The notes under the pieces were generated by a model. The model did not search any database. It worked only from the letters and a program-made list of their open reading frames with translations, and had not been told where the DNA came from. Positions 10,003 through 53,800 of a DNA stretch of 64,000 nt are shown here, piece after piece (position 1 is the stretch's first letter; each line of letters starts with the position of its first letter). Position numbers and translations under genes: made by a program. Source of the DNA: a virus (taxonomy: Duplodnaviria > Caudoviricetes). The DNA is taken from IMG/VR virus record IMGVR_UViG_3300019378_000951, positions 152,391 to 216,390 of that record; one strand, written 5' to 3'.

Positions 10003-11646
10003 ATGAAAATTATATTAGTGGCACATTCAATAAGTAGACAGAATCTTCATTTATATGGTCATCCTATAAGATTTATAAAAAAAGATATTAACGATGTATT
10101 ATATAGTATTAAAAAGAGAGTTCAAAAATTACAAAGTCTTAATAAAAAAGATTTAGACATATATAAAGCGATATATCCCGCTAATAAGTACAGAGTAATA
10201 AAAACTTCTAAATTGGATATCTTTACTAGGTTTGTAATGGTTGTAGATGATGAATGTAAAGAAGTATACAAGTATGTATGTATTGATAACAACATTGAAT
10301 TAGAATCTTTTAATGATAAATTTGAAGATATAGGTTTAAAACTTAAAACGGATATGACTAAAAAAGAAGAAATTAGTGCAATAAGAATGCTTATAAATTA
10401 CGAACATTTTAATTTATTTGAGCATACATTTAATTTTTACGGAGCAGTTACAGAAACAACATATAAACAGTTTGTAAGAGATCATTTTGATTTATTAATA
10501 GAACAATATCTTACTCCAAATCAGATTAGAACTTTAACGTCATTTCTATGGTGTTCAATAGACAAAGGATTATTATTTGAGTATATATCTCGTAAATGTA
10601 ATATTATGAGTAAGAACGCAATGATCAACGTAATTACAATATTGTATCATGCTATATTTACTGAACGTATTTCAGTATTTCCCGCTAAGCATACAATTTT
10701 AAGAAGAAGAAATCAAAGGGTCAATTCAGCTATTGCAGGGTTATCATCCTATGGTTTTTATGGTTCTTTTACAAATGGAGTCGATGATGATATTATTTAT
10801 GACGAAATTAGAAAAGAATCAATTAATATAATAAAAACCATATTTAAATTTATAGATAGAAATTTTAGAATAGTAATGGGTTCTAATAATGAGGATATAA
10901 TAGATATTGAAGATTATTTTATAGGTGCATATTATTTATTAGGAAAACCAGATCTTAACGATAAATCATTAGATGGTTATCTTAAGAATATTAGAAGGAA
11001 TTTAGAATTAATGAATCATAGATCTTTAACGAGTTTAATGTATGAAATTCCTTATAAAAATTTTATAGATGATATAATTGAGAATTTAAATGACGAAGAA
11101 TTATCATTCTTACTTGATTATAGCGACTTTAAACCTTTAAGAACTGTAATTCATGTGGAAAAACCAATAAGCGATATACAATGGTTATCAAATGACGAAT
11201 TAACTATAAGTTATTATAATAAAATTATTAGTAAAGGCGAATTTTGTGAACATGTTATGAAGAAACGTTACAGAATTCCAACTAGAAGACAAGCTCTATT
11301 AATATTATCAATGAGTTCATTTGATGTTACAATGTTTTACGTTTATTCATATAGTAATTATAAAGAATTTTTAAATGATAACTTAATAATTAAATCCATA
11401 TTTAAGACACACTCAATAATACGAATAATTAAAAATTTACAATGCGATAAATTTGTAAATGCAAAAGTTAAAGAAAAGTTTCTTTATATGTTATCACTTT
11501 ATATGGAACATGAAATTGAATTAAAAAATTTAAAAGATTATTTTAACATAGCTAAAAAATCAGGAGTTGATAAAGAATTAGTGGAATATATTAAAAATTC
11601 TAATTTTTCTAATTTGAAAGGAGCGATATTATGGAACAAACTGTAA
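10003..11646 (+). CDS. Hypothetical protein
   Basis: 547-aa ORF, SD gaggagg; RFVMVVDDECKEVYKY resembles the small-paralogue family motif. Confidence 0.8.
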   Translation: MKIILVAHSISRQNLHLYGHPIRFIKKDINDVLYSIKKRVQKLQSLNKKDLDIYKAIYPANKYRVIKTSKLDIFTRFVMVVDDECKEVYKYVCIDNNIELESFNDKFEDIGLKLKTDMTKKEEISAIRMLINYEHFNLFEHTFNFYGAVTETTYKQFVRDHFDLLIEQYLTPNQIRTLTSFLWCSIDKGLLFEYISRKCNIMSKNAMINVITILYHAIFTERISVFPAKHTILRRRNQRVNSAIAGLSSYGFYGSFTNGVDDDIIYDEIRKESINIIKTIFKFIDRNFRIVMGSNNEDIIDIEDYFIGAYYLLGKPDLNDKSLDGYLKNIRRNLELMNHRSLTSLMYEIPYKNFIDDIIENLNDEELSFLLDYSDFKPLRTVIHVEKPISDIQWLSNDELTISYYNKIISKGEFCEHVMKKRYRIPTRRQALLILSMSSFDVTMFYVYSYSNYKEFLNDNLIIKSIFKTHSIIRIIKNLQCDKFVNAKVKEKFLYMLSLYMEHEIELKNLKDYFNIAKKSGVDKELVEYIKNSNFSNLKGAILWNKL

Positions 11647-12155
11647 TTATGAAAAATTTAAAGAAATTATATTATAATAACGGTATAATTGAAAAAGAAG
11701 TAAGTCCATTCTACCTTTCAATGCTATTATATGATGATAAAGCACAATTTGAGAAAGATAAAAAAGCTAGAATGGAATTATTATCTAATACACTTACAGG
11801 TATAGATAAATTAAGATTTTTAATAGTTTCAATTAGTTATTATAACGCACATTACATTTCTTCAATTAACATTGATTTATATATTGATTATTGTAAAGAG
11901 ATATTAAAGATAATTGTTGTTGATAAAAAATGGAAAAGAAATGTAGTAATGTCATCTTTAGATGTAATTGTAAATTCCAATCTTTCAAGAAGAATTATGG
12001 ATAATTCTAAGTTGACACTTAATATGGAGCTTCCTGCAGTTAAAGGAACGAAACAGATAGACACTAAAAATTTTAGTTTAGACAAAGAATTAAAAGATTA
12101 TTTAGTAAGTTTAGATTCTAGATATAATAGATATATGGTTGATGATATTATATAA
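11631..12155 (+). CDS. Hypothetical protein with the shared C-terminal tag (YNRYMVDDII)
   Basis: ORF with SD aaggag; C-terminus matches the recurring motif. Confidence 0.75.
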   Translation: MEQTVIMKNLKKLYYNNGIIEKEVSPFYLSMLLYDDKAQFEKDKKARMELLSNTLTGIDKLRFLIVSISYYNAHYISSINIDLYIDYCKEILKIIVVDKKWKRNVVMSSLDVIVNSNLSRRIMDNSKLTLNMELPAVKGTKQIDTKNFSLDKELKDYLVSLDSRYNRYMVDDII

Positions 12156-12177
12156 TTAAATTTAAGGAGGTAATATT

Positions 12178-12837
12178 ATGATAGAATTTATGAAATTAAC
12201 AGGGGATGGAAAATGGATAGTTGTGGACATGCAAAAATTATATGAAACACAAAAAGTTATATTTAATAAATGGAGAGCTGAGTTACCAGATTCTCCAATT
12301 CAGAATATCAATAATTATACGCTTCATACAATTGAAGAATTATATGAATCTGAAAATGCACCTGGTCCAATGGAAAAACTTGAAGAAACAATAGATTCAT
12401 TTATGTATCTAATATCTTCAATATCAGCTTATGAACTAGATCCAAAGTTTAGCAAATCAGTAGAATTAGAAACATTATATTTAGATTCAGATACACTGTA
12501 CAGAGATGTACCAACGGTACAAGATATAATTAATAAATTAATGGATGTAAGAAGAATGTATCCAGAAAGAAAATGGCATAAACCATTTAATCCTGATGAG
12601 ATAGATTATTATATGAGAAGTAAATTAACTATTAAAACATATATGGAAGCTGCCATAATGATTATTAAAAGAATGTATATAAATTTTGACATGAATGACA
12701 CATATTTCATAAATGCTAAACTTAATAAGAAACAAGGATTTATTAAAACGCTTGAAGATGACGAATCAAAAAGTATTGAAGCGAATATTAAACCAGCTAA
12801 ATGTGATGATTTAGATGACTGGGATTTCATAGATTAA
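12178..12837 (+). CDS. All-alpha NTP pyrophosphatase (dimeric dUTPase/MazG-like)
   Basis: LYETQ, TIEELYE, KLEETIDSFMYL (ExxE/EExxD) and KWHK motifs; substrate not determinable. Confidence 0.55.
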   Translation: MIEFMKLTGDGKWIVVDMQKLYETQKVIFNKWRAELPDSPIQNINNYTLHTIEELYESENAPGPMEKLEETIDSFMYLISSISAYELDPKFSKSVELETLYLDSDTLYRDVPTVQDIINKLMDVRRMYPERKWHKPFNPDEIDYYMRSKLTIKTYMEAAIMIIKRMYINFDMNDTYFINAKLNKKQGFIKTLEDDESKSIEANIKPAKCDDLDDWDFID

Positions 12838-12926
12838 AAAACAAAAAAAGATATAAAAGTATATTATATTTGTGGTAATAAAGAATTAATAATAAAAAAT
12901 TTAATTAAATTTAGGAGGTAGTTATT

Positions 12927-52709: not shown

Positions 52710-53096
52710 TTATAATAAATTATCTATATAAGATTTTTCAATAAGCTTTTCAGTATACTCTATATTATCCGTAAGTTCTTTCATAACAGCATCAGTATCT
52801 ATAATTACACCAATACAGCCTCTAACAACTTCCTTATCAACTTTAGTTGCATAATATGTTTTGTTATCGTTAGCTTCATATATAGCTACCACTTCACTTC
52901 CAGATATCTTTCTTTTCATTAATACTACATGCTCAAATTTTTTTAATATAGTATCATATAAATATACAGGCCCGTATAATGTATCACGTATAGCAATTCG
53001 TATAAATATATATCTATCGTCTTTGCTGCATCTTTCAGTTTTAACTTCAATTTTTTCCATAATATCAAATATTGATTTCATAATATACTCCTCCAA
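52710..53096 (-). CDS. Small-paralogue family protein with C-terminal tag (IEKSYIDNLL)
   Basis: DRYIFI...YLYDTILKKF plus tail. Confidence 0.75.
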   Translation of the reverse strand: MEEYIMKSIFDIMEKIEVKTERCSKDDRYIFIRIAIRDTLYGPVYLYDTILKKFEHVVLMKRKISGSEVVAIYEANDNKTYYATKVDKEVVRGCIGVIIDTDAVMKELTDNIEYTEKLIEKSYIDNLL

Positions 53097-53104
53097 ATTT
53101 AATT

Positions 53105-53455
53105 TTATATCATACTATCAACTACAATAGATTTTACTTTTTTAAAAAACTCTGTATTGTTTTTCATTTCGTTGTCTAGAAATTTTCCATGTTCAGAAAA
53201 AGTTATATCATCCATTATCAATATAGGGGTTGGTTCCTTACTATAAAAACCTCTTATGAAAAAATCTGTATCTACGTCTATATCATCAGGATCCATTGTA
53301 TAATTAACTAAACATTCGTTTAAAGTATCATATAAAAACCAATCAGTAATATACTCATCACCAACCATAATATCGAATTCTAAACTTACAAATCTACCAC
53401 AAATAGTATTAAGATAATCAACATTTTTTACCCCAATAATTTTAATATCACTCAA
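53105..53455 (-). CDS. Small-paralogue family protein with C-terminal tag (VKSIVVDSMI)
   Basis: GRFVSL...WFLYDTLNECLVNY plus tail. Confidence 0.75.
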   Translation of the reverse strand: MSDIKIIGVKNVDYLNTICGRFVSLEFDIMVGDEYITDWFLYDTLNECLVNYTMDPDDIDVDTDFFIRGFYSKEPTPILIMDDITFSEHGKFLDNEMKNNTEFFKKVKSIVVDSMI

Positions 53456-53467
53456 TGATAAACCCCC

Positions 53468-53800
53468 TTATAATTGGATTTCTACTAAATGTCTTTCAAG
53501 TTCTTTAATAAGTGTTTCTTCCCCTACGGAATTCATATAATTAAAGAAAATTCTATCATTTTTATATTCACTAGGTGAAGCTTTATATACCGAATGTCCT
53601 TCTAAATCTATAAATAATTTTTTAGACTCATCATCAGAATGGTATTCATGTGGAATAAGTTCCTTACTTAAACTATCATATAAAACAGTCCAATCACTAT
53701 CAATTGTGAAATTATCACACATATAATATTGTATTAAGTAATATCTATCATCAGGATCAATTAAATGTATCTTCACAAATTCAACTTTTAATATTAACAT
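53468..53800 (-). CDS. Small-paralogue family protein with C-terminal tag (LERHLVEIQL)
   Basis: DRYYLI...VLYDSLSKELI plus tail. Confidence 0.75.
   Translation of the reverse strand: MLILKVEFVKIHLIDPDDRYYLIQYYMCDNFTIDSDWTVLYDSLSKELIPHEYHSDDESKKLFIDLEGHSVYKASPSEYKNDRIFFNYMNSVGEETLIKELERHLVEIQL

Follow-up and report, generated by a model that had tools for sequence, protein, structure and literature searches.

About one eighth of the proteins of a large, uncultured gut phage share a C-terminal tail, which is placed exactly at the protein end. The phage is represented by a 216-kb partial virus record (IMGVR_UViG_3300019378_000951), the last 64 kb of which form the stretch of DNA analysed here (27.5% GC; hereafter the window). 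As judged by sequence comparison, the tail is portable, occurring on five or more bodies that are unrelated to each other, and it probably serves as a functional handle instead of being a helix of structural importance only. [quoted passage not shown] The identity of this reader is one that we infer from genomic association, and the reading is given a probability of about 0.45. By its tail sheath, GroEL and other genes, the phage belongs with the AR9/PBS1-like jumbo phages, its identity to AR9 being only about 36%.

A common C-terminal tail on unrelated bodies

The strict tail motif, [VILMFY][VI][DE]xx[LI]-stop, was scanned over the 272 open reading frames (ORFs) of the 216-kb record. It ends 30 of them, compared with 0.43 expected from its internal frequency and with a mean of 0.69 matches (maximum 4) for shuffled tails. 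The original prediction had described the tail from 11 C-termini in the window, all of which are found at the stops assigned to them; its position counts also hold, including Arg or Lys at -8 in 10 of 11 (the exception being the ORF at 53105). The 19 carriers outside the window, where 0.35 would be expected, provide independent confirmation on held-out data (Poisson p about 1e-26). Written up to the stop, the consensus is K-x-[IV]-x-[KR]-x-[IL]-[VI]-[DE]-x-x-[LI]-stop. The last residue of the strict carriers is always Leu or Ile, and Lys or Arg occupies -8 in 25/30 and -12 in 20/30, both positions lying outside the motif definition. All 30 strict carriers are 98-174 amino acids (aa) long and 27 have an isoelectric point below 5.5. 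Tail variants differing by one residue occur on about five more proteins, bringing the total to about 35 carriers. A DNA-repeat origin of the tail was rejected, since codon identity in the tails is 0.69 at position 2 and 0.48 at position 3, indicating conservation at the protein level. In one 187-aa gene inside a tagged array (L001:5338-5901), 13 further residues, two of them Cys, extend the protein beyond the tail. A literature search for shared phage tails of this kind found no description.

Body families were defined on carriers minus their last 22 residues, and the resulting profiles were compared with hhalign. Family A comprises about 30 genes, including nine of the 11 window carriers: ORFs 42206..42628 and 42642..42983 on the plus strand, and 49378..49686, 51177..51527, 51540..51917, 51936..52334, 52710..53096, 53105..53455 and 53468..53800 on the minus strand. 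The 11 tails of the original prediction are thus present but, nine being paralogues, they do not represent 11 independent events. The other two window carriers, both on the plus strand, have singleton bodies (11631..12155, 174 aa, and 43537..43938), as does a carrier at genome 105810. Family B consists of five genes, and a tail variant is also carried by the 533-aa protein of a 512/533-aa pair. Without their tails, the profiles of A, B, 11631, 43537, genome 105810 and the 512/533-aa pair show no mutual match, so that the carriers fall into at least five unrelated groups instead of a single paralogue family. The earlier suggestion of a transferable module is thereby supported: tail-less 11631 and 43537 match neither A nor B (hhalign probability about 1% or less), so that the outcome named in the original prediction as refuting it, their being remote family members, was not observed, and the candidate assignment of 43537 to family B was rejected by the same comparison.

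Family A is restricted to this phage and its kin, with 41 hits in 1.8 billion proteins. Its homologues lie on contigs of 1.4-1.5 kb, and nearly all of the small ones retain the tail. Identity over 17 pairs of homologues is 56% in the last 10 residues, compared with 35% for the body. Scans of viral contigs with single carrier proteins recovered no close relatives. Pfam and PHROGs gave no family at threshold for the carriers tested, ten carriers having no Pfam hit.

In predicted structures the tail forms an amphipathic helix, 15-20 residues long, at the protein end, with a predicted local distance difference test (pLDDT) score of about 80-97. For family A the model (pLDDT 93) shows a beta-meander whose terminal helix spans residues 96-110 of 111; for family B (pLDDT 74) the elements follow a different order, again with a helix at the end. 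Fold searches with both models in PDB, viral, VIA wide and Atlas sets gave no convincing match (best Z 4.4 and 3.2), and matches to the kinase N-lobe (Z up to 4.4) were rejected as weak. On a helical wheel, one stripe, which includes charged residues, is made up of -1, -4, -5, -8 and -12, and the hydrophobic -6 and -10 lie opposite. Such an arrangement is as expected of an exposed binding face, and one face of the helix would pack on the body while the other is offered to a partner.

The tail might instead be no more than the conserved final helix of a paralogue family that has expanded, in which case the remaining bodies would be remote relatives or convergent. About 30 of some 38 carriers and near-carriers do form one family, and the -6/-10 face would probably pack against the body. 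This explanation is nevertheless unlikely, as the tail occurs on unrelated bodies including the 533-aa protein, keeps an exact register to the stop in 30 genes, and conserves charged residues on one helix face. Moreover, two family A members in the window tolerate its loss (minus strand; 50727..51110, with a degenerated tail, and 52339..52695, with a tail both degenerated and extended), indicating that the family A fold is not strictly tail-dependent. In two other tagged phages, Staphylococcus phage PALS_2 and Vibrio phage phiKT1024, almost every tagged body is a singleton.

The MoxR/vWA pair and tails in other phages

The moxR gene (genome 71076-73454; interrupted by an HNH ORF, probably within an intron) and the vWA-peptidase gene (genome 75624-76943; L004:15624-16943) lie outside the window in the same gene cluster. 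The former encodes an AAA_5-type ATPase with Walker A/B and Arg finger, and the latter a DUF2201 protein with a DxSxS MIDAS (an adhesion site that depends on a metal ion). The first His of the vWA HExxH is Lys here, whereas the motif is intact in AR9, PALS_2 and phiKT1024. With this zinc ligand lost, the peptidase of this phage is probably inactive while its MIDAS is kept; together with the presence of ClpC and ClpP (ClpCP), this would fit a hand-over of proteolysis. The vWA family is mislabelled as HNH endonuclease in PHROGs. Tail variants are found at the ends of both genes preceding moxR (p 0.0003 for the gene upstream of moxR), and in a relative (L212) the gene at this position has a strict tail. 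The same relative encodes a uracil-DNA glycosylase inhibitor (PF18880; L212:14222-14509) near moxR-vWA, consistent with uracil DNA in the group. The vWA C-terminus of this phage is unlike the tail, and a complex prediction of vWA, Mg and family A scored 0.01, which is evidence neither way.

Tails in other phages were found by de novo comparison of C-termini. Four cultured relatives (AR9, LPJP1, PALS_2 and phiR1-37) were picked through a gene unrelated to the question, and phiKT1024 was picked for its vWA homologue before tails were looked at. Private tails end 6 of 303 proteins in AR9, 8 of 234 in LPJP1 and 42 of 279 in PALS_2, and P-E-x-F-I-like tails end 77 of 322 in phiKT1024; none was detected in phiR1-37 by the same comparison. 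Two further genomes, G014 and G007, also have C-terminal tails. In G015, an N-terminal motif is found instead of a C-terminal one, on at least 11 small proteins (L374-L389); its clpP-like gene is divergent and contains an internal TAA. Among the 272 proteins, MoxR and vWA alone have homologues that were detected in every one of the eight tagged genomes; phiKT1024 has no more than six genes in common with this phage.

Gene order points in the same direction. In AR9, all six tagged genes (gp030-036; L071:12580-18841) lie within 6.3 kb after vWA, downstream of annotated early promoters; they share a C-terminal helix, gp033 being only 56 aa long. The first gene after vWA is tagged in LPJP1, where the deposited record has moxR and vWA-peptidase in pieces (L031:7099-9805), through frameshifts or sequencing errors, and where tagged genes at 32.8-37 kb resemble repeat proteins with a common tail. 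The vWA gene is embedded in tagged genes in phiKT1024 (L094-L103), as it is in L142 and L145, so that it lies inside tagged arrays in three genomes; in phiKT1024 moxR is 45 kb away and followed by two tagged genes, and the clpP flanks are untagged. In the vWA tree, phiKT1024, L142 and L145 nest with the AR9-like vWAs (clade support 97/96), and a tail is present in 11 of the 12 members of this clade, one of them tentative and one on a single gene. This nesting suggests, on phylogenetic grounds, that reader and tail system move together. PALS_2 (L043-L056) has a Lys-rich tail ending V-K-x-x-F-K on mostly singleton bodies, which the MarsHill-clade genome paper does not mention. Bacillus phage G (L104-L128) has a C-terminal motif on about 11 proteins and an N-terminal one on about 10, which may be ordinary paralogue families.

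The combined adjacency p is 0.001 for vWA compared with 1.0 for groEL. In control scans, tail clusters were found near 8 of 81 vWA loci, 6 of 76 clpP loci and none of 72 groEL loci. The clpP-linked cases are fragments 8-27% complete; where a similar tail is found in larger genomes, vWA as well as clpP lies within 3 kb. Further families of tails, on proteins of 55-110 aa, occur near vWA and clpP in L197 and L200, and near phage clpP in L238, L249, L251, L258, L277 and L287.

A number of observations weigh against MoxR/vWA as the reader. AR9 and LPJP1 supply the adjacency signal, and of the six carriers in AR9 five are paralogues. In the genome under study moxR (p 0.12) is no different from clpP (p 0.14), and the frequency of tail clusters is the same around clpP as around vWA (Fisher p 0.78), 73 of the 81 vWA loci having none nearby. 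The pair is not sufficient either, since G016, phiR1-37, MTATph1, phiFa and K479 possess it with no detected tail. Co-occurrence is inflated because four comparison genomes were picked by vWA homology, and the tails of different phages are to be taken as analogous. GroEL, too, is present in all complete tagged genomes.

This last point, together with a tail anatomy that would suit any single reader, bears on the alternative that the tail is an address label for some other hub, such as virion loading, a phage compartment, GroEL, RNA polymerase or a host protein. GroEL was rejected as reader, as no tail cluster lies near any groEL locus scanned and there is no groEL adjacency in five genomes. 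No known structural gene has the tail, and the small gene complement shared with phiKT1024 also counts against a common hub of this kind, which we regard as improbable.

ClpCP and other genes of the window

The original prediction had proposed the phage's own ClpCP protease as partner of the tail. The clpC gene (3229..8211, plus strand) has three exons and two inferred group I introns, which carry LAGLIDADG-like ORFs (4041-5015, 6249-7058). Its description as intact, with an LGF loop, holds only once these introns are removed; the spliced protein then has Clp_N, Walker A1/B1, Walker B2, the LGF loop and D2-small. The clpP gene (41101..41775, plus strand) is intact as claimed, retaining Ser121/His146/Asp197. 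Three tagged genes do follow clpP, as had been noted, but their closeness (431 bp) is not significant (p 0.14), the distance being unremarkable because the genome is so rich in tags. A ClpC-like match at genome 132270 was rejected, as it is shared intron sequence in a RecA-like gene. In this RecA/UvsX-like gene (L007:10786-13547), Walker A is split by an intron of group I that bears a LAGLIDADG-like ORF and closely resembles the two of clpC.

Under this alternative, the tail would dock adaptors on ClpC, either the phage's or the host's, so that host proteins are degraded by ClpCP in the manner of MecA or SPO1 Gp53. It would be served by a phage ClpC with N-domain and a ClpP with full triad, by the three carriers following clpP and another 3.4 kb after clpC, by the tail clusters near six clpP loci, and by the moxR-vWA-clpC-clpP cluster of G007 and G016. 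Yet ClpCP as the specific partner is not borne out. Neither ClpP nor ClpC was detected in AR9, LPJP1 or PALS_2, which have analogous tails, and no ClpC was detected in phiKT1024 or G015, so that five complete tagged genomes are without detected clpC. Conversely, G016, a complete relative, encodes clpC-clpP but shows no tail. Tails therefore do not require a phage ClpC, nor does its presence suffice for them. Host ClpC could be the reader; however, tails are wholly different among Bacillus, Listeria and Staphylococcus phages though host ClpC is conserved, which a fast-evolving phage reader fits better. On balance, docking on ClpC is decidedly unlikely. Because some relatives cluster moxR-vWA-clpC-clpP, the MoxR/vWA and ClpCP readings may nevertheless be parts of one pathway. 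The AR9-like L130, L136 and L137 have the operon-like order moxR, vWA, small ORF and clpC/A-like gene, followed by clpP in L130 and L137.

Least probable is a C-terminal degron making early proteins short-lived: Clp ATPases do read C-terminal degrons, the tail has a free hydrophobic C-terminus in fixed register, and early-promoter-like TATATTAT sites show a weak association with tagged genes (26/34 compared with 133/238 others, p 0.03), but known C-degrons are unstructured, whereas the tail is predicted to be helical to its last residue and is not ssrA-like, its conservation reaches -12/-16, and equivalent tails occur in phages without Clp genes.

Among the other genes of the window, four tandem giant genes (1618-1974 aa) occupy 14373-36120, one with a VgrG3-like C-terminal domain. 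Interleaved with the tagged genes at 39276-50657 are those for a RusA resolvase (39276), a dCMP deaminase (42994), an M18/M42 aminopeptidase (48074) and a Na/Ca exchanger (49728). The same proteins as in the record are found on other contigs of up to 330 kb. The sequencing runs holding the phage are animal faeces metagenomes, which may be its source, and the lookup of these runs listed no RNA dataset as holding the phage genome. Neither tRNA nor transfer-messenger RNA was found in genome 1-153600.

Proposed mechanism and comparison with known systems

In the MoxR/vWA reading, a common docking helix would plug many fast-evolving small proteins into one phage-encoded machine of the AAA+ class (ATPases associated with diverse cellular activities). 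The free hydrophobic C-terminus and the acid at -4 could bind MoxR, at the postS1 loop, in the way that NorQ is bound by the C-terminus of NorD, or else the MIDAS of vWA. The variable bodies would bind host or phage targets as an adaptor library, and the purpose may be ATP-driven remodelling of host complexes early in infection, with ClpCP perhaps degrading the delivered proteins in this phage. More broadly, we tentatively suggest, as an idea somewhat short of even odds, that large phages run their own modular targeting system, in which dozens of fast-evolving binders share one tail and an AAA+ reader (MoxR/vWA, sometimes together with ClpCP), tail and reader co-diverging and moving between unrelated lineages.

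Most small jumbo-phage genes are without known function. Should 10-25% of these genes encode plug-in components of a single machine, much of the unknown fraction would gain a testable role, and phage MoxR/vWA would acquire a function besides the proposed virion assembly. As the design is also found in the cultured phages AR9 (of B. subtilis), PALS_2, LPJP1 and phiKT1024, it is directly testable.

The closest functional parallels are MoxR systems. Deletion of two NorD C-terminal residues abolishes the NorQ-NorD complex (PMC13036017), and one residue added to or removed from Rubisco abolishes activation by CbbQ-CbbO (PMC4660213). MoxR hexamers thus read a free C-terminus in strict register, and MIDAS binds an acidic side chain (PMC13036017, PMC4660213). 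The phage tail is likewise fixed to the stop; in contrast, those systems have one adaptor and one client, whereas here there are about 35 tagged proteins. The jumbo-phage MoxR/vWA-metallopeptidase pair was described by Iyer et al. (2021), who proposed a role in virion assembly and mentioned no tail (PMC7824862). The same two genes are present here, and in AR9 they lie downstream of an early promoter in the company of tagged genes. Another phage protein, SPO1 Gp53, is adaptor-like for host ClpC (PMC6873191). Like MecA, it represents the redirection of an AAA+ machine, in its case by a phage protein, but as a single protein with no common tail.

In T4, the unrelated proteins gp43, gp33 and gp55 share a hydrophobic C-terminal clamp-binding epitope. 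These are three replication and transcription proteins with an extended peptide, whereas the present tail is a predicted helix on dozens of orphan proteins. Poxvirus ankyrin-PRANC proteins and giant-virus F-box adaptors combine a variable target-binding body with a constant terminal docking module, in many copies. They serve a eukaryotic ubiquitin ligase through a domain of 40-100 residues, and no homology with the phage tail is claimed. The modular phage tail system, if it operates as proposed, would be the prokaryotic-virus counterpart of such F-box adaptor libraries.

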